From contig OZ242339.1 in assembly GCA_965208505.1 (NCBI GenBank), forward strand, positions 2,011,162 through 2,075,161: 64,000 nucleotides of DNA, in the 5' to 3' direction. Made by a program: the position numbers and the translations under genes. Within the stretch, counting starts at the first letter, position 1, and every line of letters starts with the position of its first letter. Below the pieces are notes generated by a model, which was given only the letters and a program-made list of their open reading frames with translations, was not told the DNA's origin and did no database searches. Shown piece by piece: positions 48,719 through 64,000 of the stretch. This DNA is from Acidimicrobiales bacterium (GTDB lineage: Bacteria; Actinomycetota; Acidimicrobiia; Acidimicrobiales; Bin134).

Positions 48719-49333
48719 ATGAAATCGCTTAGAAATTCCGAGGAGGTGGTCGAGGGCCTCGGTGAAAAGGTAATTGAAGCTCTTGGGGCTGCCATCCCCC
48801 GAACACGGCTTGACCTTGCCAGATATCAGGCGATGCTCCCGGACATCGTTGCAACCTCCAGTTCTCGGGGACTGGCAAATTGGTTCCACGATCGCATTTG
48901 GTTCCACGTTGTCTCTGACCTTGAATCCCTCGACAACGCTGTCATTGTCGATAGGGGCCCGACTCGGGAGATCGTTATTGACGGCTCATACCGGATCCGC
49001 GTCAAGCGTCATGACAAGAAAGGCCAGATCAGCACCTACCCAACCCAATCTGCACTTGAGTTCCTTTCTCAGCCGCCAGAGCAACTCGTACTCGATGGAC
49101 TCGCTGAGGTCCACTTGATCGCTGGATACCAGTGGAACCCGACGACTCATGAGATAGGACCAGCTGTCCTGTCACTTCGCGACGGTCGAAACAATGTGAT
49201 CTGGATGATGGAGCTCCCCAACCTGGCTACTGGTGCCCCAGTCGTTGACATCACAGGCCCAAGAACCCCGGAGATCCCGACTATAGAGTTCCCGAGCAGC
49301 AGCGTTGGAGAAACGGAGGTCCGCCCGCAGTGA
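48719..49333 (+). CDS. hypothetical protein (orphan), coupled to XRE-ImmA/IrrE gene
   Basis: 204-aa ORF in a lower-G+C segment. Its stop overlaps the GTG start of the next gene (GTGA). No family recognised. Confidence 0.5.
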   Translation: MKSLRNSEEVVEGLGEKVIEALGAAIPRTRLDLARYQAMLPDIVATSSSRGLANWFHDRIWFHVVSDLESLDNAVIVDRGPTREIVIDGSYRIRVKRHDKKGQISTYPTQSALEFLSQPPEQLVLDGLAEVHLIAGYQWNPTTHEIGPAVLSLRDGRNNVIWMMELPNLATGAPVVDITGPRTPEIPTIEFPSSSVGETEVRPQ

Positions 49334-50370
49334 GCTTGGGGGAAGCAATCGCCACTGCACGACGAGCTCGAGGCTTGACTCAAGAAGAACTGGCAGAATG
49401 CCTGAACGTAACCCAGGCCGCTCTTTCCCGGTACGAAAACGACCTTCGAGACCCTACGGAGGAAGCTCTGAGCGAGATCGCCTCAGCTCTGGGAGTTGTA
49501 CCTGAGTTACTGAATCGAGCTGACCGCATGGAGGGGGCTCTGGCCGTTGGCGCTCACATGCGGCGACGAGCAACTGCCAAGCCGACGGTGTGGCGTCGGC
49601 TTGAAGCTCAGCTAAATCTCTACCGGCTCCATGCTCAGCGTCTCTTTGACGAGATCGGCCTGCGCACCGACTTATCTATCCCTGCGCTTGACCCACTCGA
49701 GTACGACCCCTCCTCAGCAGCCCGTATCCTCCGGATGCAATGGCGAATGCCGAGCGGACCGATTCACAATCTATGCAACTGGATGGAGGCCGCTGGCTGC
49801 CTGATCGTTGTTACAGATTTCGGCACATCTCGAGTAGACGGGCTATCTCAGTGGAGTGGTGCTCATCCGGTGATCATGCTCAACGCATCAGCACCGACAG
49901 ATCGCCGTCGGCTCACCTTGGCACATGAGCTGGGACACCTTTGCCTTCACAGCCAAGACATCTCTGACGATGTAGAGGCCGATGCCACTGAATTTGCTGC
50001 TGAGTTCCTTATGCCAGCAGAAACCATAAGGCCACAGCTTCGTAACCTCGGCCTCGGACGTCTTCATGACCTCAAAAGACTCTGGGGGGTTTCGATGCAA
50101 GCGCTGATTGAACGTAGTCATCAACTGGGACTCTTGAGCCCTCGGGAACGCACCAACTTCTATAAGCGGTTCAGCTCACAAGGTTGGCGAACCCGGGAGC
50201 CATTGAGTGACGAGTTGGCACAAGAAAAGCCCCGTCTCGCCGCGGAAATTGGCCAAGCCCTGATCGCTCGCGGTCTCACCGACAGCGAAGCCGCCATCAT
50301 CTGCGGCTTCTCCCCTGACAATCCGGACAACCCCTTCCTTTCTGACGCTTCCCGACTTCGCCTTGTTTGA
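49330..50370 (+). CDS. XRE-family HTH fused to ImmA/IrrE (M78, DUF955) metallopeptidase domain
   Basis: 346-aa ORF with N-terminal HTH (RGLTQEELAECLNVTQAALSRYE) and zinc motif HELGH. Confidence 0.8.
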   Translation: MSLGEAIATARRARGLTQEELAECLNVTQAALSRYENDLRDPTEEALSEIASALGVVPELLNRADRMEGALAVGAHMRRRATAKPTVWRRLEAQLNLYRLHAQRLFDEIGLRTDLSIPALDPLEYDPSSAARILRMQWRMPSGPIHNLCNWMEAAGCLIVVTDFGTSRVDGLSQWSGAHPVIMLNASAPTDRRRLTLAHELGHLCLHSQDISDDVEADATEFAAEFLMPAETIRPQLRNLGLGRLHDLKRLWGVSMQALIERSHQLGLLSPRERTNFYKRFSSQGWRTREPLSDELAQEKPRLAAEIGQALIARGLTDSEAAIICGFSPDNPDNPFLSDASRLRLV

Positions 50371-51691: not shown

Positions 51692-52969
51692 TCAGGCCGC
51701 GATTCGTCGTTTGCCGGGTTGCTGTGGTGGCGGAGGTGGGAGGCCGAGGCGGGGCGGGGGTTGGAGCGTGAACCGGCCAGTTTCGGGGCAGGGCTCGACG
51801 GAATAGCCGCTTTTGTGGACTTTCTTGTGGCAGCGGGGGCACAGCAACACCAGGTTGTCTATGTCGGTGGTCCCGTTGTGCTCCCACGGTTGGATGTGGT
51901 GGGCTTCGCAGGCCTGTGGCCTGATGCCGCAGCCTACGCAACCTCGGTCTCTGCGGTAGAGGGCCAGCTTCTGGGCCTTGGTGACCGCTCTTTGGGCTCT
52001 TCCCACATAGAGGGGCTGTCCGTCGGCTGAGAAGATCATCGGAACGATCGCCGCATCGCAGGCCAAGCGGCGGAGCTCATCGAGGTCGATGGGCGTTCCG
52101 TCGATCAGCCCGGCGCTTGTGAGCCGGCCCTCGATGGCGTCGTACTCGGCTGACATCACGAGTACCGTCTTCTGCGGCCGAACGCCGCCGCCTTCACCGG
52201 CAGACTCATTTGCCGAAGCGTCGGCTGGCTGCTGGGTAATCAGCGTGACGAGTGCGTCTGCGTTGCGCTGCTCGAAGGTGCGCACCGGTTCGTAGGCGAT
52301 GTCGTCACCGAGCATCTTGGTGCTCATGGCCCAAAGGGCGGTCTTGACCCGATCTCCGGCTACCTGATCTAGCTCGGCGTGCAAAACGACCATACCGCCG
52401 CTGCCGTCGAACACCTTGACAGAGCGGCGGGCTCTTTGCCGCTCAATGCGGCTCATCCCGTCATCGGCCCGGCGCCGGTCCTCGCTGGCGACGACGGTCT
52501 TCTTGAACTCGTCGTGGCCTTGCCAACCGCCCAGCGCCAGCAGCTCTTGTTGGTCCTGCCCGCTTATCGGCACCCGCTTGTGCGATTCTGCGACCATCCC
52601 ACCCTGATCGGCGGAGATGTGTCCATTCTGCACGGCGCTGAGGACGTCGGGCATGGCCGTGAGCCCTTCGGCTATCTTGGCCAGCTGACGGGCCTTGTGA
52701 GCGCTGATTCCGAATTGATGGCACACCGTCGCCGCGGCACTCCGGCCCTCGATCTCTCCGTAGCGGACAACCAGTCCAACGAGGTATCCCTCCGCACGGC
52801 GGCGGATCGAGTCAGCCTCCGCCATCAAACCGAGCAACTCCGAAGCACTCGCCCCAGAAAAATCAGGAAACCCAAAACCCGCAGCAACACCGGCTTTGTC
52901 ATGCCCTTCACTGGGATTTATCCCAAACTCCATACATGCAATTATATCAATCCGAGTGACAACAACCAT
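51692..52969 (-). CDS. DUF222 domain / HNH endonuclease (REP13E12-like) protein
   Basis: 425-aa ORF with HNH motif CEAHHIQPWEHNGTTDIDNLVLLCPRCHKKVH. Start may be the MEFGINPSE codon at 52933. Confidence 0.85.
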   Translation of the reverse strand: MVVVTRIDIIACMEFGINPSEGHDKAGVAAGFGFPDFSGASASELLGLMAEADSIRRRAEGYLVGLVVRYGEIEGRSAAATVCHQFGISAHKARQLAKIAEGLTAMPDVLSAVQNGHISADQGGMVAESHKRVPISGQDQQELLALGGWQGHDEFKKTVVASEDRRRADDGMSRIERQRARRSVKVFDGSGGMVVLHAELDQVAGDRVKTALWAMSTKMLGDDIAYEPVRTFEQRNADALVTLITQQPADASANESAGEGGGVRPQKTVLVMSAEYDAIEGRLTSAGLIDGTPIDLDELRRLACDAAIVPMIFSADGQPLYVGRAQRAVTKAQKLALYRRDRGCVGCGIRPQACEAHHIQPWEHNGTTDIDNLVLLCPRCHKKVHKSGYSVEPCPETGRFTLQPPPRLGLPPPPPQQPGKRRIAA

Positions 52970-52985
52970 CCTGAATTAACAGGAA

Positions 52986-53438
52986 TTAGGCGACCATCCG
53001 CAAGAGCCGGTTGCCGGTATTGGTGTCGACGTAGGCGAAGCTCTGCGGGGGTCGAAAGCCTCTCGGCTTCGCCCGCAAGTCTTGGAGAGGCACCTTACTG
53101 ATGAGCGATTGCGGCTGTGCCAGCGTTAGAGCTGTACCTACTTCCAGTCCCTCGAAATAGCGCTGGAACTCTTGGTGGGCCAACGCGCATCGTGATCCGT
53201 GCTCGCGCCACAACACGGCGAGGTCGGCAGACTGGACATCCGTGACAATGCAGGTGCCGAGCAACGCCCGTACCGGTGTAGTCGCATACAACAGCGCCCG
53301 CGTCGGGACTTCGATCTTCGGCGCCGTGCGCCGGAACTCCACCGTCTTGTCCCCCGCAAGGATCGCTTCGGCGAATCTCGGCTTGAGCGACAGGACAACC
53401 ATCCGGTCTTGGTCGATCCCACCCACATCCTCAACCAT
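52986..53438 (-). CDS. ASCH domain protein
   Basis: 150-aa ORF. VVLSLKPRFAEAILAGDKTVEFRR is typical of PUA-like ASCH proteins. AAGG lies upstream of ATG 53438. Confidence 0.7.
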   Translation of the reverse strand: MVEDVGGIDQDRMVVLSLKPRFAEAILAGDKTVEFRRTAPKIEVPTRALLYATTPVRALLGTCIVTDVQSADLAVLWREHGSRCALAHQEFQRYFEGLEVGTALTLAQPQSLISKVPLQDLRAKPRGFRPPQSFAYVDTNTGNRLLRMVA

Positions 53439-55426
53439 CTCGCCTTAACCCTTCCTCGTAGAGTGCCCGGACACTCTGCTCGTCAACTCGTCGAGTTGTT
53501 ATGAAGTATCCCCTGGTATTCATGTCGGGGCACAACTCTCTGGCCCTCGATATCGGAACTGGCTCGCGGAACATCTCCGTTTGGCTGAAAAGCAGCGCTG
53601 TCGCTACAAGATCACTGCTCTCGCCAAACGGCTTGGCGCTTCTGAGCACCTGCGGCTTGTCGAGCACCCCGCGGGTTTTGGTGCTTGCGAAAAAGGCGGT
53701 GTGGGTCTCCCGTGTCGACCTCGTCCAACCACGACATAGCTCGCACGCCCCCCAATGCCCCGCCACCTGAAACCCACCAGATGATCCTTGCGGGCGCTTC
53801 AACAAAACTGCGGGGTGCCATGTAGTAGGTATTTTCTCGGGCAGCGGCTGCTCGGGAGTGCAACTCGAACAGCCGCGTCTGAGGCTCCTCATACCCGAGG
53901 AGGACGCGGGCGTACTCCGGCTTGATCGGCACCACATAGGACCTGATAGCCCTGCTGAAGACCTTCGACGGCCACGCAAAGCGCTCGTATTCTCGCACCA
54001 GATGGGAGTTCAGCCTGTCCCAACCGAACTCGATCAACTCCGGCGGCAAGGCATCGTCAGGGCCGAAGAGATCGGTCCGCACTACCGCCTTCCAAGCTGA
54101 CCCCTCGGCTCTGAACCCCTCGTCGTGCAGTGCCCGCTCGACTAACCGACGAGTTAGGTCGTCCACTGCGACGGTTGCCGGCCCATCGTTGGCGACGATT
54201 GTCCGAATTTGGTGGACCATCTGCCTGGCTGCCGTATAGGACTGCTGCCCTGGAGCACTACGGAGCGCTGTCACCGTGACGCCAGCTTGATCCCGGTACA
54301 TCGCGGCAATCGCCAGAGGTTCTTCTGAGTCTGTCTTGAGATACTCGATGCGCCCCCCGTGGGCAGTTGAGACGCTGAAACGCTGCCTCAAGCCGCTGGG
54401 GCTCTCACCCACATGATGATGGCAGCAGACTGACAGATCGGTGTTCGCAGGTATTTTTGAGACGGCAGACACGACCATGCCCGACGCAGCGATGGCTCGT
54501 GTCTGATGGCTGTGATCGCTTCCCAGCGCTTGGAGGCGTAACAAGAAATCGTCCGGCCCAACCAGATTCACCCCTGTCATCTGCCCGATCTGCTCCGCAT
54601 GCTTGAGGACACCTTCGTCTCGCGTGATGAGGTACGCGGCTCCCCCGGTCACTGCCTGGGCGACTACCCGAAGATCGCCACCTCTCAGAACAGCTACAGA
54701 CGGATCAGCCTCAAGCAACCCCAAAGCTGCCTGCCATGCCTCATAAGACGGTTCCAGAGTTCGAAACTCGCCCAGTGCGGATTCAAACCTCTCACCCTTG
54801 GGTATCTGACCCGACAGTTCAGAGTGACTCTGCACCGTTACTGCCAACTCTGCGACCTCGGCAACCCAGTCTGCGACGAGCGCCCGCGAGGCGAGGAATT
54901 CTCGCTGCTCCAAGATGTCCAACAGAACATTGGTGTCGATGGCCGCCAATAAGCGAGCATCTTCCTGTTCGGGTTCCCCAAAAAGTGCCTGAGCTGCGAT
55001 TGGCCGCCACCATGTGACGAGGGGGTGTCCAGCACGACTGCGGCCTGGCTTCTCCCCCAAGCGCCGAAATCCGAACTCGGGCCACAAGCTGTTCGCTTCG
55101 TAGTCCTTGCGGCACGACAGATGGATCCCCGCCCTGTGGGGGTTGCGCTCAACAATGCCCTCCACTAGCTCCCGCGCGATCCCCCTCCCTCGTTGTTCTG
55201 AACCCACACAGAGATGGGTGAGTGAGATGTCCCCTGTCCTGATCCTCTTCCTAAAGAGCGCGTAGCCTCTGACCTCACCGTCTTCCGCGAACACGAGCAC
55301 CCTGCCGTCGGCTGCGGCCTCGTTGATCGCCGAATACGGCAAGATTCCCAACGTCGCACTGCTGGCGTTTCCAAGTTCGATGACCTGCTCGTAGTACGGC
55401 GACCCTGGTTTGACTGTTTCGATCAC
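53431..55426 (-). CDS. multidomain GNAT acetyltransferase - PIN nuclease - (GNAT-like) - ASCH-like protein, apparent 1-nt frameshift near 53667-53670
   Basis: GTG 55426 has GGAGGG 8 nt upstream; an alternative upstream start is possible. GNAT core SEQRGRGIARELV; PIN AIDTNVLLDIL..YLITRDEG; C-terminal VVPIKPEYARVLLG. The reading frame 53612-55426 continues in the 53431-53979 frame. Confidence 0.6.
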
Positions 55427-55762
55427 GTTCAATGCCCTCCAATCAGCGTGGCGAGGTCGGGCGAACTCTACCGGGAGGTAACGACACAATTGCCCGCAGG
55501 CGGTTCCGGCTGGGGCTAGCCCAAGGAGCTTGCAGGTCACTGTGTTGGGACACCACCTTGGCGCGCCGGCTGGATCGTTCGGCAACGGCTGGTCCCTGTC
55601 CTTCTTCGACACGGGTACCCCTATCGAGGTGATCGACCGGAGGGGATTGCTCGCCACCCCACAAACCAAGCTCGCAAGAGCGAGAGGACAGATACACCTC
55701 TATCGCCCCTCAATTCGGTAGAGTAGTGCCCACATGGTCCCCGGCAGGGGGGCCAACAACCT

Positions 55763-57184
55763 ATGGAGTTCCCGATGCGGATCTTGTCTTCTGTCACCCC
55801 CACCCCCGAGCAGTTGAAAGTCCTCGCAGATGTCAAACCAGGGTTCCGCATCATCAGAGGTGCTGCTGGCAGCGGCAAGACATCCACAGCGCTCCTAAGG
55901 TTGCGTGAGCAAGCCACAGTCCGCCTCAAGCGTCGTCAACGTCATAGTCACACCACACCAGTGCGGGTGCTGGTCTTGACCTTCAATAGGACCCTTGAAG
56001 GCTACATTTCAGAGCTTGCCAGGCAATCAACACCCAGCGATGATGCTCTGGAGTTGGAAATCAGCACCTTTGGTCGCTGGGCGAGATCGCTGGTCGACGA
56101 CGTTGAAATCTTGGGTCGCAATCAAGCCTCGGCAATTCTCCGTCCCCTCATTCAACATTTCACAACCTCGCATCAGCACGAGTTCTTCGTCGACGAGGTT
56201 GAATACGTCTTGGGCCGGTTCACGCCAGAAGGCCTCTCCAGCTACCTAGAGGTGGTCCGCAGGGGCCGAGGCACTGCTCCGCGGGTAGACAAACCCGTTC
56301 GAGAGACCCTGCTCCAAGAAGTTCTTCCTGCGTACAAAGAGGCTAAGGCCAAGCGTGGCGTTGTCGATTGGAGCGATCTCGCCATCTTGGCTTCTGATGC
56401 TCAGCCGGATCTGCTCTACGACGTAGTGATCGTCGATGAGGCACAAGACTTCTCTGCCAACCAAGTCAGAGCAGTGAAGCGCCACCTTCAGGACTCCCAC
56501 AACACCACCTTTATCATCGATGCCATTCAGCGCATCTACCCTCAGTACTTCACATGGAACGAGGTTGGTATCGAGGCTCGCCCTGAGGTCATCCGCACCC
56601 TCCGAGAGAACTACCGCAACACTGCCACGATCGCCTCCTTCGCTTTGCCGCTCGTAGACGGCCTTCCAGTCGAAGACGACGGCACGTTGCCGGACTTCAC
56701 CGCCTGCCAGCGCTCAGGTGCCAAACCGCTTGTCGTCTCGGGCAAGTACAGCGCACAGCTCCGCTTTATGTTCGATCGGCTCACGAAAGACGCTGACTTG
56801 GAATCCGAGTCAGTAGCCCTGCTCCAGCCTCGAGGCGGGGGCTGGTTCGACGAAGCTCGGCGGATCTTGCAAGTTCGAGGGATACCGTTCTGTGAGCTGA
56901 CCCGCGAGAACGAATGGCCATCAGGTTCTGAGGTAGTCGCCCTCTGCACCATCCACTCCGCCAAGGGCCTCGAGTTCGATCATGTGCTGATTCCCGGTCT
57001 TAGCCAGCAAGTCACTCCACATGGGCCAGATGCCGGTGACGCCAACCTGGATCGGCTGCGCCGCATGTTGGCCATGGCCATAGGCCGAGCCCGCAAGTCG
57101 GTAATGGTCGGCTACAAGCCCGGCGAAGAATCCCGCCTTGTAGGTCTTCTCGACCCCTCCACCTACCACTTTGTTGAGGCGTGA
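55763..57184 (+). CDS. SF1 (UvrD/Rep-like) helicase, compact form
   Basis: 473-aa ORF with Walker A GAAGSGKT, Walker B VIVDEAQD, NYRNT, TIHSAKGLEFD and AIGRARKS. ATG 55775 has a better RBS (GGAG). Confidence 0.8.
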   Translation: MEFPMRILSSVTPTPEQLKVLADVKPGFRIIRGAAGSGKTSTALLRLREQATVRLKRRQRHSHTTPVRVLVLTFNRTLEGYISELARQSTPSDDALELEISTFGRWARSLVDDVEILGRNQASAILRPLIQHFTTSHQHEFFVDEVEYVLGRFTPEGLSSYLEVVRRGRGTAPRVDKPVRETLLQEVLPAYKEAKAKRGVVDWSDLAILASDAQPDLLYDVVIVDEAQDFSANQVRAVKRHLQDSHNTTFIIDAIQRIYPQYFTWNEVGIEARPEVIRTLRENYRNTATIASFALPLVDGLPVEDDGTLPDFTACQRSGAKPLVVSGKYSAQLRFMFDRLTKDADLESESVALLQPRGGGWFDEARRILQVRGIPFCELTRENEWPSGSEVVALCTIHSAKGLEFDHVLIPGLSQQVTPHGPDAGDANLDRLRRMLAMAIGRARKSVMVGYKPGEESRLVGLLDPSTYHFVEA

Positions 57185-57879
57185 CAGCCATGAACTGGGA
57201 ACCCGAAGCAATCCCAAAGACCGCAGATCAACTACGCCATTCACCAAGCTGCCCCGAGGTGGTCGAAGCTGCCGTTGAGCGGGGCATTACCTGCATAGTG
57301 CATTTCACCCGCATCAATCCTGGTCTGGTGGGCATATTGGACAGTTCGGCAATCAAGTGCAGGAGTGACCTGCCTGATGACAAGCGATTGAAGTACGCGT
57401 ACGAGCCGAATGCGAATTATCGAGGTCGGGACTCCCGCTGGCACGGATACGCCAACCTGTCCGTGACAGGAATAAACAAGCGGATGTTCCGCTCATCCAA
57501 AGAGTGGCACACAGAGGTAGATTGGGTGATCCTTGGCTTTGGCCCGGAAGTCCTGGGCGACCCCGGCGTTGTTTTCTGCACCACCAACAACGCCTACCCA
57601 GTCGTACACCGCTGCGAGGACTTGCCGGGCTTCGAGCAAATGTTCGCAACAGAAATCCCCTGGGGCTATCAGGGAAGCGTCTGCACCCGGATCGGGCGAC
57701 AGTCGAACCAGACGACCGATCCCCAAGCGGAAGTCCTCTACCCGTCGGCACTCTCCCTCGATCATCTCCACACGATTACCGTTGGGGATGAGGACACATA
57801 CGACACCGTGGTTGGCGCCTTGGCCAACTTCCCAAACTACACCCCCTATATCGCCCTCAAGCCGGAGGCGTTCCGATGA
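57181..57879 (+). CDS. DarT-like (DUF4433-like) ADP-ribosyltransferase, putative toxin
   Basis: 232-aa ORF. Four blocks are collinear with my recollection of DarT: CIVHFTRI, HGYANLSV, VFCTTNNAY and QAEVLYPSALSLDHLHTITV. 4-nt overlaps with both neighbouring genes. Confidence 0.55.
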   Translation: MTAMNWEPEAIPKTADQLRHSPSCPEVVEAAVERGITCIVHFTRINPGLVGILDSSAIKCRSDLPDDKRLKYAYEPNANYRGRDSRWHGYANLSVTGINKRMFRSSKEWHTEVDWVILGFGPEVLGDPGVVFCTTNNAYPVVHRCEDLPGFEQMFATEIPWGYQGSVCTRIGRQSNQTTDPQAEVLYPSALSLDHLHTITVGDEDTYDTVVGALANFPNYTPYIALKPEAFR

Positions 57880-59519
57880 CCATGACCAATCGAACTCCGC
57901 CAGAGCAGGCAGACCTCTTCTGCGAGACTGACAACAACCGGGTCGCTCGAACTCGGAACTCCATGTTGTGGGCCGCATATGGAGATGCGCTCGGATTCAT
58001 CAGCGAGTTGGTGGACGAAAAAGGCCTCAAGCGCAGAACTCAGGGGGCTCCGCTAGACCGGCTCATGGACTGGAGACGAAGGGTTGGGGGCCGGGGAGGC
58101 GTGGACGTAGTGCTACCCGCCGGATGCTGGTCCGACGACACTCAGCTTCGAATGGCGGTAGGCCGCTCGATCGGCAATCACGGCTTCGACGTGGAGACTT
58201 TCGCTCGCATCGAGCTTCCGGTTTGGCCGTCCTACGCGCTCGGCGGTGGGCGGGCGTCCAAGGCTGCGGCCAAGAACCTCGCCGCGTCCGGTGCCCTTTG
58301 GTACGCCAACACTTTCCCCGGGTGGAGTAACGCTGGAGGCAACGGTGCCGCCATGCGGATCCAACCTCATGTATGGGCATCTGCCGACCTCAACGGCGGC
58401 TACCTGCTCGACGTGATCACCGACAGCGTCTGCACCCACGGACATCCCCGGGCCATCGTGGGGGCCTGCTTCCACGCGGCCACCCTGGCCCACTGCCTGC
58501 GAACCGGCACCGCCCCGACCTTGGAGGAGTGCGCGGAACTCGCTGCCAATCTGGGCGATGCCCTCTCGCTGATCAAGGGCCATCAGAGTCTCGGCTCCAT
58601 GTGGGTCGGTCTCTGGGAGCGGGAGAGCGGCAAGCTATTCCAAGAGGCATGGCAGGACACCATTGTCGAACTCTGCGATGCCATCAAACGAACCGCCATT
58701 GCTGCCGATGCCACCTCGCCACAAACCGACGCCTACCGAGCAGTCTCCGACCGTCTTGGCCTCGCCGACAAGCGGCAGCAGGGCAGCGGCATCCTCACCA
58801 CCGTGGCCGCCGCGGCACTCGCCGTGCTCGCGGACAACCCATACGAGGGTTGCGCAGCTGCTGCGAACGCGCTCGGCACCGACACCGACACGATTGCCAC
58901 AATGGCAGGCGCTCTGCTAGGTGCCTGTGATGCAACCGCCCAACCCTCCGAAGAACCTCTCGACAGCAATTACCTGCTGAACGAGGCCGACCGCCTCACC
59001 GCTATCTCCCAAGGTCAGCAAGTGACCAGCCACCCCTACCCGGACACCCTCACCTGGATCGCACCCCAAACCCAAGCCGACGCGCTGGTATCCGAAAATG
59101 GACATCTCGTCGTCGAAGGCCTCGGCCCGGTAAAAGAGCAGGATTCCCCACCGTCCTGGGGGCCTCGTAAAGACTTCGCCTGGCAGTGGGTCCAAACCGA
59201 ATTCGGCCAGACACTCCTCATCAAACGCCGCCCCGAACTCCGCGCTCAAAGCATGTGCAATGCCCCGGAACCTCCTCCTGCACCTTCATCTTCCATCCGT
59301 TCCCACAAGCCGGCCAGGGCCAACAAGCAGACATCCTGCCCGCCAAGTGAGTTGCCGCTGGATCGCGGCCTCGACTTTGACGCCGCGGTAAGACACGCCA
59401 AAGAGCACATCTCCAACGACAACCAACTTGGTTACACCGTCCGACGCGCCGCCCGAGACGGAACCATCAATGACCTAGTCGCTCTCGTCGCCACTCTCCG
59501 CGACGACCTGCGCCGCTGA
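57876..59519 (+). CDS. ADP-ribosylglycohydrolase (ARH/DraG family) with C-terminal extension, putative antitoxin
   Basis: 547-aa ORF with AAYGDALGFISE, WSDDTQLRM and GTDTDTIATMAGALLGA metal-binding blocks, plus about 170 further residues of unknown fold. Confidence 0.85.
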   Translation: MTMTNRTPPEQADLFCETDNNRVARTRNSMLWAAYGDALGFISELVDEKGLKRRTQGAPLDRLMDWRRRVGGRGGVDVVLPAGCWSDDTQLRMAVGRSIGNHGFDVETFARIELPVWPSYALGGGRASKAAAKNLAASGALWYANTFPGWSNAGGNGAAMRIQPHVWASADLNGGYLLDVITDSVCTHGHPRAIVGACFHAATLAHCLRTGTAPTLEECAELAANLGDALSLIKGHQSLGSMWVGLWERESGKLFQEAWQDTIVELCDAIKRTAIAADATSPQTDAYRAVSDRLGLADKRQQGSGILTTVAAAALAVLADNPYEGCAAAANALGTDTDTIATMAGALLGACDATAQPSEEPLDSNYLLNEADRLTAISQGQQVTSHPYPDTLTWIAPQTQADALVSENGHLVVEGLGPVKEQDSPPSWGPRKDFAWQWVQTEFGQTLLIKRRPELRAQSMCNAPEPPPAPSSSIRSHKPARANKQTSCPPSELPLDRGLDFDAAVRHAKEHISNDNQLGYTVRRAARDGTINDLVALVATLRDDLRR

Positions 59520-59570: not shown

Positions 59571-59867
59571 GTGGACGTGACCGTCACCATTCCTGATGAT
59601 CTCTACGAGCAGGTGGAATCACTCGCCTGCCGCCAAGAACAGCCCCGCTCAGACCTCTACGCCCAAGCTCTGAAGATGCTCGTCCGTGCCCAAGGCGACC
59701 CTGATCAGCTATCAGATGGTCCCAGCAGACCCGAGTGGCTGGACTGGAGCGCCGAAGAGATCACCAGCAACCTCAATGAGTACGCCAGCAAACACGATAC
59801 CCGCCTCGACTCAGCACTAGCAGAGGCTCAAACCAGAATGCTCTCGGAGAACTGCGAGTGGGAGTGA
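59571..59867 (+). CDS. small ribbon-helix-helix (CopG/MetJ-like) protein
   Basis: 98-aa ORF with GTG start. VTVTIPDDLYEQVESLA....RSDLYAQALKML has the RHH pattern. Overlaps the next gene by 10 nt. Confidence 0.45.
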   Translation: MDVTVTIPDDLYEQVESLACRQEQPRSDLYAQALKMLVRAQGDPDQLSDGPSRPEWLDWSAEEITSNLNEYASKHDTRLDSALAEAQTRMLSENCEWE

Positions 59868-61237
59868 GGCGAGGCGATTTGCAATTGCGGGCACCCGAGT
59901 TCGTTGTAGACGCCGATAACCCTTTTGCAAATGACCGGCTGAATCGCCAACACGATATAAAGTCATTCTGCGATGTGATTCAGAACGCTGGAGAACACGG
60001 AGCAATCATCCTGCTTGACGGCCAGTGGGGTTCGGGAAAAACGGCATTCGTCAAGATGGCCACTGCCCATTTGCAAACTCAAGACGCAAGAGTTGCCGAG
60101 TTCAACGCGTGGAAGCAAAGCCATACCGAGATACCACTCGCGGATCTGATTGCAGCTATGTCTACACAGATCGACAAATCCAAAATAAAGGCTGTAAAGA
60201 AAGCGGCGGGAAATGCACTTGTTCACGTCAGCAAGATGGCCAGTCGTGGAATCGTAGATGTAGATGCCATGAAGAATTCCAAGCCTGAGATCATTGATCA
60301 GTGGGAAGGGACCGAAAAAACAATAGGTGAATTCAAGACTCAACTTCAACTTGCAGCGTCATCAGATAACGGTCCTATTGTAGTCATCATTGACGAGTTG
60401 GACAGGTGTCGTCCAGACTATGCACTGAAGGTATTGGAAACTGTCCGGCACCTATTCGATGTTCCTGGTCTGGTTGTCGTGCTTGCCGCCAACTTGGAAG
60501 AACTCTGCCACACCGTTCAATCCATTTACGGGCCGAACTTCACAGCAGACCGTTACTTGCGCCGTTTCGCCGACCAATATGTGCTGCTAACCAAGCCCGA
60601 TGAGCAGCATCTCTCTGAGTTCCTTGAACACACCTTGGAGATAGCCGGACTGCATACTCGCATTTCAGCGGCGAACTCGCCTATGGGCACCGATGCAGAT
60701 GCAGGCAAAGTCCTGCAACTGGCGATTGAAGCTACGGGATGCAGCATTCGCGATCTAGAACAGGCAATTTTTCGAACTGTAACGCCTATCGCTTCTGTAG
60801 AGCCAGGTTTTCGTCCTCGTTCTTCTGCTCCGCAACCGACACTCATAGTAGCTGCACTAACAACTCTGCAAGTCATAGCCCCAGATGCCTATCGAGGCAT
60901 TGTAGATGGAGACGATAATGACGGATTCGCTGCAATTGCTGCAATATGCAGGGTTTTCGGCAAACCATATGAGGATAACATAAACGACTGGCCGTTCACG
61001 CCAAGAGGTCAACTCGAATCAATCTTGATAGCAGGTATGAGCACAGCCTCTAGCGGCAAGGTAGCGGAGATAAGTGAGAACATTTCACGAGACTATCAAA
61101 AAGCCACGCAATGCAGCGACGAGTTGGCCGCCACGATGGGTAGTCGCATTATCGGTATAGACTTGAGAACCTTCAACTGGGTTCGTCGTTTAGTGTGTTT
61201 CCGAGACTATAAGCCATCCACAGGCGAGCAAATATAG
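59858..61237 (+). CDS. KAP family P-loop NTPase (no transmembrane insert evident)
   Basis: 459-aa ORF with Walker A DGQWGSGKT and Walker B/KAP block VVIIDELDRCRPDYALKVLE. Markedly A/T-rich codon usage. Confidence 0.8.
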   Translation: MGVRRGDLQLRAPEFVVDADNPFANDRLNRQHDIKSFCDVIQNAGEHGAIILLDGQWGSGKTAFVKMATAHLQTQDARVAEFNAWKQSHTEIPLADLIAAMSTQIDKSKIKAVKKAAGNALVHVSKMASRGIVDVDAMKNSKPEIIDQWEGTEKTIGEFKTQLQLAASSDNGPIVVIIDELDRCRPDYALKVLETVRHLFDVPGLVVVLAANLEELCHTVQSIYGPNFTADRYLRRFADQYVLLTKPDEQHLSEFLEHTLEIAGLHTRISAANSPMGTDADAGKVLQLAIEATGCSIRDLEQAIFRTVTPIASVEPGFRPRSSAPQPTLIVAALTTLQVIAPDAYRGIVDGDDNDGFAAIAAICRVFGKPYEDNINDWPFTPRGQLESILIAGMSTASSGKVAEISENISRDYQKATQCSDELAATMGSRIIGIDLRTFNWVRRLVCFRDYKPSTGEQI

Positions 61238-61311: not shown

Positions 61312-64000
61312 TCAGTGTTTTGGCGGTTTTCTCTGGGCGGGGGTTGTGGTGGGGAGATCGGTGGCGGGGATAAGGGGGGAGGCGAGGATGTCGTCTAGGA
61401 GTTTGGCGGCGGTGGGGGTGACTTGGACGGTGTGGTCGAGGACGGCGAGGAGGCGGAGGAGTTCGTCGGTTTGGGTCCACTGGGTGGGGCGGATGTCGTC
61501 GAGGGGGCTGGACTTGCGGCCCTTGCGGTTCTTCATGCGGTAGCCGAGCCAGGAGCGGAGGACTTTGAGGCCGGAGACTTCGAAGTTCCAGACTTCCAGG
61601 CTGACGGGGCCAAAGACTCCCGTGCCGACGATCAGATGCTGAGTGTCGATGGCGTAGGCGAACTGCTCGGGCATAGCCTCCACGGGGTCGATCTCTTGGG
61701 CGGGGCCAGCAGGGAGATGGGCTTGGCCGGGTGGCGCGAAGCGTTCGCCCCAGGTGTGGTGCCAAAGCAGGTCGCGACCCAAATCCGCTGCTTGCCGGAA
61801 CAGGTCGGCATCGGTGGTGACGGGGAGGTGGATGGGGCCAGCACCTTCAGCAAGCTCGTTGGCGAAGTGTTGGCTGAAGGCAGCAGTGCCGCCAAGGGCG
61901 TAGGCGTAGGCCAGCAAGTCCTCGGGAGTGACCACAATGCCAAGTTGCTGGCTCAGGGCTTCGAGCAGGCCTTCGGTGATGTTGGCTGCTCGGCCGCTGC
62001 TGTCGCGGTAGAGAGGTATGACATCTTTTGCGCCGCGACCGCTGAAGTGGTGAAAGTCAGGTACAAATGGGGTGATTGTGAGCACCGGGCCATATCCAAA
62101 TTTAGTAGACGTCAAAGTTGTGAGAAAGACCTGGTGGGAACCGCGGACACGCCACATGTCTGGCCCGGCTCGATCAATTAGCCGTTGGTCAGCGATCAAC
62201 CACTGCCGGTCGAAGCTCCGGTAGCCGTACTGTTCAAGGCGTTCAAATGGGTCCCCGCGATCCAAATGCAGCGCAGATTGCAACTTCTTCGTCCCGCCAT
62301 GCAGAGGTTTGGGCTCGCTATGGACCTTTTGGCCTGATGGGCTCTCATCAAACAACTCTTGACGCTTGCGTGGCACTGCTGTCAAGAACGCCCGCCATCG
62401 GCTCTCAAGCACCTGCTTCGTTTCCGCGATAGGCCATGTTCGGCCGAGTTTGCAACCGGATCTGATCCACGGGAACAAGTCGGTCACCTGCGGCCAGTCG
62501 TAGTACGCGGCGTCGCTGCGGGGTGTTAGGTCGTCTAGGCCGATGCCAGTGATCTGTTCATTCACATCATCAAGGGACAGACCGTTTAGTCCTGCCAGCT
62601 TTTGCTCCCTGGTGCCTCCGACACGGTGGTAGCGCACGGTGCAATGGCCGGAACGTTCGGTCTGGGTGCGGACACCGACGGCCACGGCGACGGGGGTTTG
62701 GATGTCGAAAACGTTCTCTTCCTTTTGGGCACCGCGGCCTTCGCCACCGAGGTCGATGATCCACAGTTCGTCGAATGCTTGGCGCAACAGGTGGCGGACA
62801 CCGCCCATGGAAATGCCGTCCAAGTAGGACGAGGCGGTGATGAAGGCGACCACGCCGGGACCAGGAGGAAGTTCAATGGCCTGCCAGATGGACCACACCC
62901 AGAAGTAGACGTAGTCGTTGTAGACATTCTTCAGGTGAATGCCCAGACCGGCCGACCTCATGGGCTCGGTTACGGCATCCATCAGAGGGACGGGCTGCGA
63001 TGTTCCCTTGCTTCCCGACCGAGTAGCTGCCCGCCTCTTGGCGGTGTCGGCGTCGAATAACGGCCGGATCCCAGGCACCCCGTAGCGGACCACTCCGCCT
63101 TTACGGCGGCCAGTGGTGCCGGATTCTCGCTCTTCGCGGTCATAGGGCGGGTTGCCAAGTACGACGGTGAACCGTTCATGCTCCTTAAGCTCGGAGGCCC
63201 GTTCGCCTTCCTCAGCCACGGGGTTGCTCATGGTTTGGAGCTGACCTTGGCGGGGGGTGTGGTCGAGGGCGTCGGTGAGCAGCACTTGGGGGTCGCCGTC
63301 GTCCACGCCTTCGCTGTGCAATTCCAGGGCGACCTTGAGGTGGGCGATGGCGTAGGGGCCGAGCATCAGCTCGAAGGCGTGCATCTGGGGCAGGACGTGG
63401 TCGCGCAGGTGCTTTGCCCACTCTTCCCGAGCACCACCCGCTCCCAGGAACGACCGCTTGGCTTGGCGGAGCCAGGCCACCAGGAATGTGCCAGTACCGG
63501 TGGCGGGATCGACCATCGATACGAACGGGCGATCAGGGCCTATGCCATCGGGTAAGTCAAAGCCATTGCGGTCGGCTACCTCCCGCCAGGTGGCGGGATC
63601 GGCAATGCCCATCGGCAAACCGAAGCGGGAGCGCAGCACTTCATCAGTGGCTCGCACGATGAAGTCCACGACCGGCTGGGGCGTGTAAAAGGCGCCAGCG
63701 TCGGCTCGCATCTTGGGGTCGTACTTCTTGAGGAACTCCTCGTAGAAGTGGATGACAGGGTCGCCGCCCTTGGCGGTGGCACCGAACTGGTCGAGGATCG
63801 ACTCTACGTTGGTGTCGCGCAGGTCAGCCACAAGCTGGGTGATCCCGCTGCCGGCCAAGTCGAGGGCGGCGGCCTCGTCGTGGACCTGCTCGAAGAAAGC
63901 GGCCAAGAACGGGTTGGCCAGCGGGAGGGCTGAGAAGATGGGCGACGAGCCGAATCCCTCGGGGTCGGTGATCCGGCTGGTGAGGGCGCCGTAAACCAGG
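61312..64000 (-). CDS. gamma-class N6-adenine DNA methyltransferase with type ISP-like C-terminal domain (5' end outside window)
   Basis: The frame stays open through 64000 upstream of the listed TTG at 63906. Motif I VDPATGTGTFLV, motif IV GNPPYDRE, C-terminal YGYRSFDRQWLI block. Confidence 0.8.
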   Translation of the reverse strand, partial: LVYGALTSRITDPEGFGSSPIFSALPLANPFLAAFFEQVHDEAAALDLAGSGITQLVADLRDTNVESILDQFGATAKGGDPVIHFYEEFLKKYDPKMRADAGAFYTPQPVVDFIVRATDEVLRSRFGLPMGIADPATWREVADRNGFDLPDGIGPDRPFVSMVDPATGTGTFLVAWLRQAKRSFLGAGGAREEWAKHLRDHVLPQMHAFELMLGPYAIAHLKVALELHSEGVDDGDPQVLLTDALDHTPRQGQLQTMSNPVAEEGERASELKEHERFTVVLGNPPYDREERESGTTGRRKGGVVRYGVPGIRPLFDADTAKRRAATRSGSKGTSQPVPLMDAVTEPMRSAGLGIHLKNVYNDYVYFWVWSIWQAIELPPGPGVVAFITASSYLDGISMGGVRHLLRQAFDELWIIDLGGEGRGAQKEENVFDIQTPVAVAVGVRTQTERSGHCTVRYHRVGGTREQKLAGLNGLSLDDVNEQITGIGLDDLTPRSDAAYYDWPQVTDLFPWIRSGCKLGRTWPIAETKQVLESRWRAFLTAVPRKRQELFDESPSGQKVHSEPKPLHGGTKKLQSALHLDRGDPFERLEQYGYRSFDRQWLIADQRLIDRAGPDMWRVRGSHQVFLTTLTSTKFGYGPVLTITPFVPDFHHFSGRGAKDVIPLYRDSSGRAANITEGLLEALSQQLGIVVTPEDLLAYAYALGGTAAFSQHFANELAEGAGPIHLPVTTDADLFRQAADLGRDLLWHHTWGERFAPPGQAHLPAGPAQEIDPVEAMPEQFAYAIDTQHLIVGTGVFGPVSLEVWNFEVSGLKVLRSWLGYRMKNRKGRKSSPLDDIRPTQWTQTDELLRLLAVLDHTVQVTPTAAKLLDDILASPLIPATDLPTTTPAQRKPPKH

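Follow-up and report, generated by a model that had tools for sequence, protein, structure and literature searches.

A helicase-DarT-ADP-ribosylglycohydrolase cassette of an Acidimicrobiales genome as a probable distant member of the DarHTG family

In a 64,000-nucleotide stretch of contig OZ242339.1 from the Acidimicrobiales bacterium assembly GCA_965208505.1, referred to below as the window, positions 55763-59519 hold three forward-strand open reading frames (ORFs) whose predicted products are, in order, a helicase, a DarT-like ADP-ribosyltransferase (ART) and an ADP-ribosylglycohydrolase (ARH) (Table 1). An initial annotation, made from the sequence alone, had described this trio as co-translated through 4-nt start/stop overlaps and as a candidate toxin-antitoxin or phage-defence system, and the three frames lie exactly where it placed them, as do the junctions GTGA (57181-57184) between the helicase and DarT and ATGA (57876-57879) between DarT and the ARH. 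The overlap of the ORFs and the packed operon hold, but the overlapping GTG is the less likely start of DarT: ATG 57190, which is 5 nt past the helicase stop, is the likelier one, because the database copy of the protein (P0001) is 229 aa long and its homologues begin with MxWAPEA, the N-terminus in most of them. Most helicase homologues, that of Escherichia coli included, begin at the equivalent of Met5 (55775), which is possibly the true start of the helicase. Whichever starts are used, the genes of the trio are tightly packed. The promoter of the operon presumably lies in the 93-nt divergent intergenic region upstream of the helicase gene, where consensus scans for sigma-70 promoters, like those for terminators, returned matches at chance level only. 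The lower G+C content remarked on initially is real and modest, at 0.604 in the trio versus 0.641 across the window's housekeeping part (1-48000), and no tRNA was found marking the border of the island.

A system of this type is already known from E. coli, so that its existence is not in itself new. DarHTG (Liu-DS3) was described and tested in a study published in Nucleic Acids Res. in April 2026 (gkag308; PMC13069673), the single paper with all these elements that a full-text search turned up, and this makes out of date the initial statement that no helicase-DarT-ARH system had been described. In that study DarH belongs to the UvrD helicase family and has no 2B domain, DarT is the transferase, and DarG3 is an antitoxin module akin to the ADP-ribosylglycohydrolases of archaea and eukaryotes (PMC13069673). 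The system protects against phages T4, T7, T5 and SSL_2009a, protection depends on the active site of DarT as well as on the helicase residues that bind ATP, construction of a DarG3 mutant was not possible, and the reported prevalence is <0.5% of E. coli genomes, with occurrence in several phyla (PMC13069673).

The first gene of the window trio encodes a compact superfamily 1 (SF1), UvrD-family helicase resembling DarH. Its core motifs are GAAGSGKT (Walker A) at residues 33-40, VIVDEAQD (motif II) at 222-229, NYRNT at 283-287, TIHSAKGLEFD at 396-406 and AIGRARKS at 439-446, and the Pfam families UvrD-helicase and UvrD_C are each matched at ~1e-11 and ~44 bits. Residues 25-296 and 554-616 of PcrA (1pjr) could be aligned to it, and the stretch between the aligned 1A/2A segments spans 92 aa as against 257 in PcrA, which leaves no space for a 2B domain; the window helicase therefore resembles DarH in belonging to the UvrD family, in lacking 2B and in retaining intact ATP-binding residues. 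The best matches in PADLOC are to a NERD+UvrD candidate (C3a187; 8.6e-24) and to GajB-like helicases of the Gabija system, from which it differs in being much shorter (473 aa), in being without 2B, in its coupling to DarT and ARH genes and in having no GajA or NERD partner. Assignment to Gabija was rejected, as no GajA-like (OLD-family nuclease) gene is present in the neighbourhood.

The second product is a true DarT-fold ADP-ribosyltransferase and the predicted toxin of the cassette. Pfam DarT is matched by the 232-aa protein at 3.6e-14 (53.4 bits; cut-off 22.5), PADLOC returned a weak DarT match (5.7e-5), and NCBIfam holds no model naming the protein, its matches to the helicase and the ARH being sub-threshold only. 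A DarT family profile of 19 homologues, compared with the Protein Data Bank (PDB), matched solely DarT1 of E. coli C7 (8baq; 1.1e-13), and thymidine-specific Thermus DarT was not matched. The AlphaFold2 model, built with 57 homologues, reached a predicted local distance difference test score (pLDDT) of 91.1 and a predicted template modelling score (pTM) of 0.88. All eight significant Foldseek matches of this model in the PDB were DarTs, the best being DarT1 (E=1.8e-12, TM 0.69/0.76), followed by Thermus DarT2 (~0.6/0.68) and then Mycobacterium tuberculosis DarT (0.55). DarT1 is thus a nearer match to the window DarT than is thymidine-specific DarT2.

The conserved blocks of DarT are CIVHFTRI (residues 38-45), HGYANLSV (88-95), VFCTTNNAY (131-139) and a block beginning QAEVLYPS (182-201); these and the other motifs quoted in the initial annotation are all present at the expected residues. 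Correspondences to DarT1 were taken from a HMMER alignment at 22% identity, with the PDB chain index equal to the native number plus one (Table 1). Glu184, initially put forward as the catalytic residue and encoded by GAA, is invariant in the homologue sets of 19 and 57 and aligns with DarT1 E152, the essential ART glutamate whose Ala mutant was used in crystal structures (PMC11543638). Together with E152, the residues reported as essential in DarT1 are N104, M71, R52 and D54 (Schuller et al., PMC11543638). His41 and Ser94, the latter within the 88-95 region that had likewise been nominated for the active site, also map to DarT1 active-site residues. The catalytic core therefore appears to be DarT1-like, and the sequence does not reveal the target base.

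DarTG1 (DarT1-NADAR, E. coli C7; PMC11543638) is accordingly the closest relative of known structure, its toxin being the sole sequence-level PDB relative and sharing the catalytic set H-F-T, an Arg, a Ser where H-Y-E has its Tyr, a Met, the base-coordinating Asn, a Gln and the Glu. It differs in that the window antitoxin has an ARH fold rather than NADAR, in that the window system has an obligatory helicase, and in that the guanine readers K74/Y75 are not kept. DarTG2 (Thermus, M. tuberculosis and enteropathogenic E. coli) shares the DarT fold of the toxin, its catalytic Glu and the logic of an antitoxin that reverses the modification, but the window cassette has no macrodomain, carries Asn and not His119 and Ser for Tyr71, and shows a weaker fold match to these toxins (TM 0.55-0.63), with no sequence match by the family profile. 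Both canonical two-gene systems were rejected as identities for the trio, since neither the trio nor its neighbours hold a macro or NADAR domain and there is no PADLOC DarG match. The initial remark that characterised DarTs are countered by the macrodomain protein DarG was incomplete, as the antitoxin of DarT1 is a NADAR enzyme (PMC11543638).

Compared with DarT1 and the E. coli homologue, the window DarT is extended at its N-terminus (residues 1-33; 57181-57280) by ~25 residues. The extension comprises two short helices and a conserved W6-x-P8-E9-A10-x-P12 motif, in which W6 is invariant, is confined to an Acidimicrobiia-centred clade, and matched no Pfam family when scanned alone.

The third product is a DarG3-like ADP-ribosylglycohydrolase and the predicted antitoxin. 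Its sole Pfam match is ADP_ribosyl_GH (2.3e-31, 110 bits, residues 30-352), its motifs are AAYGDALGFISE (33-44), WSDDTQLRM (85-93) and GTDTDTIATMAGALLGA (334-350), and 45 homologues show no variation in the metal-binding motifs W85-S-D-D-T89 and D336-T-D-T339. The AlphaFold2 model has a pLDDT of 72.6, with the core well modelled and the linker at 459-492 below 50. Foldseek placed archaeal MJ1187 (TMt 0.78) and human ARH3 (~0.7) at the top, with ARH1, DraG, Tri1 (6drh) and the immunity protein of a Listeria ART-ARH pair (8za7) ranked lower, so that, as reported for DarG3, the predicted fold is akin to archaeal and eukaryotic enzymes and is neither macro nor NADAR. The domain calls made initially for all three products are thus borne out by Pfam, the AlphaFold2 models, Foldseek and the PcrA alignment.

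Beyond its core the ARH carries a beta-domain with many invariant Trp, Phe and Gly residues, which is also present in the E. coli DarG3-like cassette protein, and then a tail (453-547) that does not align to the E. coli ARH. The beta-domain and the C-terminal bundle, each scanned alone against Pfam, matched no family. Against viral proteins, Foldseek of the ARH model returned only generic ARH-fold proteins of phages and giant viruses, none with the beta-domain, and therefore no specific counter-defence candidate. The Tre1-Tri1 (6drh), Listeria (8za7) and DraT-DraG systems likewise join a transferase to a reversing ARH-fold hydrolase, and are matched by the window ARH model; their transferases, however, belong to other ART clades and target protein arginine, they are without a helicase, and their ARHs are without the beta-domain and tail. 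The Aravind-lab survey of NAD/ADP-ribose systems gives DarT-Macro/NADAR pairings only, and an earlier prediction of a DarT-ARH pairing was not found in a literature search. The strings 'DarT3/DarG3' in a Vibrio DarTG preprint are citation-superscript artefacts and not an earlier name.

A tblastn search of plasmids revealed a helicase/DUF4433/ARH cassette on Salmonella pIndS104-CTX and on Streptomyces tsukubensis pST1. The Salmonella cassette is 99.9-100% identical in DNA to an E. coli chromosomal cassette (proteins WP_000699006, WP_000151475 and WP_001087212; cassette records CP101356.1 and NZ_CP021722.1) that is present in 21 of 5,426 complete E. coli genomes. In E. coli AR_0128 (NZ_CP021722.1, L083:9001-16983) it lies in an integrase- and insertion sequence (IS)-rich island beside pth-ychF. 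The cassette is therefore mobile, since it occurs on plasmids of Streptomyces and of Salmonella and within an E. coli island with integrase/IS flanks. From its species, its architecture and a prevalence of 0.39% versus the published '<0.5%', we infer that this E. coli cassette is Liu-DS3. The label given by PGAP to its helicase, '3'-5' exonuclease', is probably a misnomer.

Compared with this cassette, the window helicase is 43% identical over its full length (E=4e-133), the DarT 34% identical (E=2e-35) and the ARH 41% identical over residues 22-452 (E=3e-105), the last supported by hhalign over residues 21-452 (2.8e-78). The two loci share the order helicase, DarT, ARH-fold hydrolase in co-oriented and tightly linked genes, the beta-domain past the ARH core, and a defence or mobile-element setting. 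They differ in that the window sequences are distant and the host is an Acidimicrobiia-like member of the Actinomycetota, in the lineage-specific ARH tail, in the W-x-P-E-A extension of DarT, which E. coli DarT lacks, in the DarT1 R52 equivalent, which is Arg83 in the window and Lys in E. coli, and in junctions that overlap or abut in the window and are spaced by 0 and 9 nt in E. coli. Taken together, the window trio is in all likelihood a distant member of the DarHTG family.

The DarT protein has 221 database relatives, nearly constant in length. To assess recurrence, one genome per species was scanned, which gave 112 relatives, and 80 of these loci were examined. A full-length helicase directly upstream and a full-length ARH directly downstream of DarT were found by strict criteria in 71 of the 80; this is a lower bound, as three further loci (L024, L043 and L065) missed the criteria solely through BLAST-split matches. 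The collinear trio, whose recurrence had been proposed initially as a check, thus recurs in no fewer than 71 of the 80 related loci, across many phyla. Hosts are mostly metagenome-assembled genomes (MAGs) of Acidimicrobiia, with actinomycetes (Dactylosporangium, Micromonospora, Nocardia, Streptomyces and Saccharopolyspora), Burkholderia, Pelagibacterium and other Proteobacteria, Acidobacteriota, Spirochaetia, Chloroflexota (Dehalococcoidia and Anaerolineales) and Planctomycetota (Phycisphaerae) also represented. Identity to the window is 91% for the helicase, 75% for DarT and 83% for the ARH at the closest locus (L001), and averages 64%, 52% and 55%, respectively, across the trio loci; in 71 of 71 the helicase is better conserved than both partners, DarT included, and DarT is the least conserved protein. 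No match to DarT was found by tblastn in 50,697 phage genomes.

Several of the examined loci are decayed or rearranged. The helicase is deleted save for its last ~29 codons in L022, where DarT and ARH are intact, and is split by a ~3 kb insertion in L029; DarT is split by ~1.3 kb in L069, truncated beside an intact ARH in L073, and truncated with loss of the ARH in L048. At L022, L073 and L069 the ARH is retained despite damage to the helicase or to DarT, as expected of an antitoxin. At one locus of a Vicinamibacteria MAG (L053; OZ241322.1, 4552-8222) the UvrD-like helicase is absent, and the ARH gene comes after a single 710-codon frame combining Schlafen AlbA_2 (1.7e-11), HATPase_c_4 and DarT (1.7e-20). 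The arrangement resembles a module swap with in-frame fusion at the helicase position, and suggests that the upstream slot may hold an exchangeable nucleic-acid-binding module.

These results extend a system validated in E. coli alone to the Actinomycetota (Acidimicrobiia and Actinomycetes) and to a number of further phyla, and the survey of loci shows the three-gene unit to be strongly conserved. They also add comparative data beyond the DarHTG paper, namely a DarT1-like active site without the guanine readers, a conserved ARH beta-domain, a helicase that is the best-conserved component and a helicase slot that appears swappable, which sharpen the questions of which base is modified, whether ARH-fold enzymes can work on DNA at all and what part the helicase plays.

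The cassette is probably a DarHTG-type, helicase-dependent DarT toxin/ARH antitoxin system acting against phages from within a defence island. In the proposed mechanism, DarT would transfer ADP-ribose from NAD+ to a base of single-stranded DNA (ssDNA) through an active site formed by His41-Phe42-Thr43, Arg61, Arg83, Ser94, Met102, Asn136, Gln182 and Glu184. In the uninfected cell the DarG3-like ARH would hold DarT harmless by hydrolysing the adduct with its di-metal core, and may also bind or sequester DarT via the beta-domain or the C-terminal bundle. The helicase may make or track ssDNA for DarT or, as a second option, may link the sensing of phage replication intermediates to the release of DarT. 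The outcome would be a block of phage DNA replication, with growth arrest or abortive infection. Sequence and predicted fold are the basis for the suggested DNA target, its base, reversal by the ARH and the roles of the helicase and the additional ARH domains.

A number of points weigh against this interpretation. The protection data come from the distant E. coli homologue, and the equation of the E. coli cassette with DarHTG is based on species, architecture and prevalence. The DNA target and the base are inferences for E. coli DarHTG as well. In the window DarT the guanine readers K74/Y75 are replaced by Ser105/Ser106 and D54 by Ser85, as aligned at 22% identity. A helicase that is the best-conserved part of the trio is not typical of a fast-evolving phage sensor. 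Further, ARH-fold enzymes are, to our knowledge, known for acting on protein (Arg/Ser) and O-linked ADP-ribose and not on DNA bases. A more specific proposal, offered only tentatively, is that helicase-linked DarTs write an adduct unlike the thymidine-N3 product of DarT2 and perhaps unlike the guanine-N2 product of DarT1, that the ARH would be the first ARH-fold remover of ADP-ribose from a DNA base, and that the helicase slot holds an exchangeable nucleic-acid-sensing module.

An unlikely alternative is that the DarT-like enzyme modifies protein or RNA and that the ARH reverses this in the manner of DraT-DraG or Tre1-Tri1, with the helicase as target, regulator or scaffold. The characterised ARH folds that the model resembles (ARH1, ARH3, DraG, Tri1 6drh and 8za7) do act on protein Arg/Ser-linked, free or O-linked ADP-ribose, and the lack of conservation of the DarT1 guanine readers could be read the same way. 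However, the DarT fold is specific, as all of its significant PDB matches are DarTs, the base-coordinating N104 and phosphate-binding Q150 of DarT1 correspond to the invariant Asn136 and Gln182, and the obligatory partner is a DNA helicase, all of which favour a DNA target.

Table 1. Features of the cassette and its neighbourhood, with DarT residues aligned to E. coli C7 DarT1
Feature	Position in window	Strand	Description
ASCH-domain protein	52986-53438	-	PADLOC PDC-M11B, 3e-29
GNAT acetyltransferase + PIN protein	53612-55669	-	685 aa; weak PDC-M11A match
Divergent intergenic region, GNAT-PIN gene (- strand)/helicase	55670-55762		93 nt
Helicase ORF	55763-57184	+	473 aa; DarH-like
DarT ORF	57181-57879	+	232 aa from GTG 57181, or 229 aa from ATG 57190; predicted toxin
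Glu184 codon GAA	57730-57732	+	predicted catalytic ART glutamate, within invariant Q182-A183-E184
ARH ORF	57876-59519	+	547 aa; predicted DarG3-like antitoxin
ARH catalytic core	57936-59009	+	residues 21-378; from metal motifs, secondary structure and fold matches
Beta-domain after ARH core	59028-59231	+	residues ~385-452; invariant columns Y388...R452; 5 strands at 404-451
Lineage-specific ARH tail	59232-59516	+	Pro-rich disordered linker ~453-500; three-helix bundle 501-546
RHH/CopG protein	59571-59867	+	10-nt overlap with KAP NTPase gene
KAP-family P-loop NTPase	59858-61237	+	PADLOC PDC-S20 (single-gene candidate)
Type ISP/IIG restriction-modification enzyme	61312-64000	-	Type_ISP_C 2.9e-70; PADLOC REase_MTase_IIG 2.4e-217
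DarT H41/F42/T43			DarT1 H17/F18/T19; invariant
DarT R61			DarT1 R35; invariant
DarT R83			DarT1 R52; >=90% kept; Lys in E. coli cassette DarT
DarT S94			DarT1 S63 (Ser in place of Tyr of H-Y-E); invariant
DarT M102			DarT1 M71; conserved
DarT N136			DarT1 N104 (base-coordinating; His119 in DarT2); invariant
DarT Q182			DarT1 Q150 (binds DNA phosphate); invariant
DarT E184			DarT1 E152; invariant
DarT S105, S106			DarT1 K74, Y75 (guanine O6/N7 readers); not conserved
DarT S85			DarT1 D54; not conserved; invariant D84 adjoins

The trio sits in a defence island or cluster (Table 1), preceded by genes that are metabolic up to ~48.7 kb. The ASCH and GNAT-PIN genes, which diverge from the helicase gene, are likely a candidate defence pair of the PDC-M11 type, and these, with the KAP NTPase and Type ISP genes on the other side, make up the defence surroundings of the trio. 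The toxin-antitoxin and defence reading first made for the trio is supported. The frame of the Type ISP/IIG enzyme is open to the end of the window, and its N-terminal part lies beyond it. Beside the E. coli cassette, on the opposite strand, is a gene for a 1300-aa YobI-like P-loop NTPase (2.4e-96; weak KAP match).

The adjoining ribbon-helix-helix (RHH) and KAP genes raise a second alternative, quite unlikely on the evidence gathered, in which the functional unit is larger and comprises the trio, the RHH protein and the KAP NTPase. A KAP NTPase 69-77% identical to that of the window lies directly 3' of the ARH at three loci (L001, L006 and L008), the closest relatives to carry it, an RHH gene adjoins the cassette at one of these (L006, upstream of the helicase), and the E. 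coli cassette adjoins the KAP-related NTPase. However, the KAP gene is present in only 3 of the 80 related loci, for which reason it was rejected as a general fourth component, and its product matches the stand-alone candidate PDC-S20 at 1e-70. There is also a sharp difference in G+C content between the KAP gene (0.499) and the trio (0.604), the NTPase gene beside the E. coli cassette runs in the opposite direction, and the published E. coli trio works as three genes.

It is very unlikely that the trio is mainly a chromosomal regulator of growth or replication, or an addiction module, and not a phage-defence system. DarTG of M. tuberculosis is reported to control replication as well as gene expression (PMC12170906), the cassette occurs widely among Acidimicrobiia MAGs of slow-growing, symbiont type, and the persistence of DarT and ARH after loss of the helicase in L022 fits addiction; against this stand the surrounding cluster of defence genes, the mobility of the cassette and the protection against four phages afforded by the E. 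coli homologue. That the cassette is a decaying, non-functional remnant is suggested by the decayed copies at L029, L048, L069 and L073 but is extremely improbable given three full-length frames with all catalytic motifs intact and 75-91% identity to L001 over the whole length.

At the low-G+C edge of the island, positions 48719-50370 of the forward strand encode an ImmA/IrrE-type regulator pair, in which an unassigned 204-aa ORF overlaps by 4 nt the gene for an HTH_3 + IrrE/Peptidase_M78 protein (G+C 0.573), followed by genes for an EngB-like GTPase (housekeeping) and a HAD hydrolase. Between the housekeeping genes and the defence cluster lies a reverse-strand gene (51692-52969) for a protein with DUF222 and an HNH endonuclease domain, a family typical of Actinomycetota.

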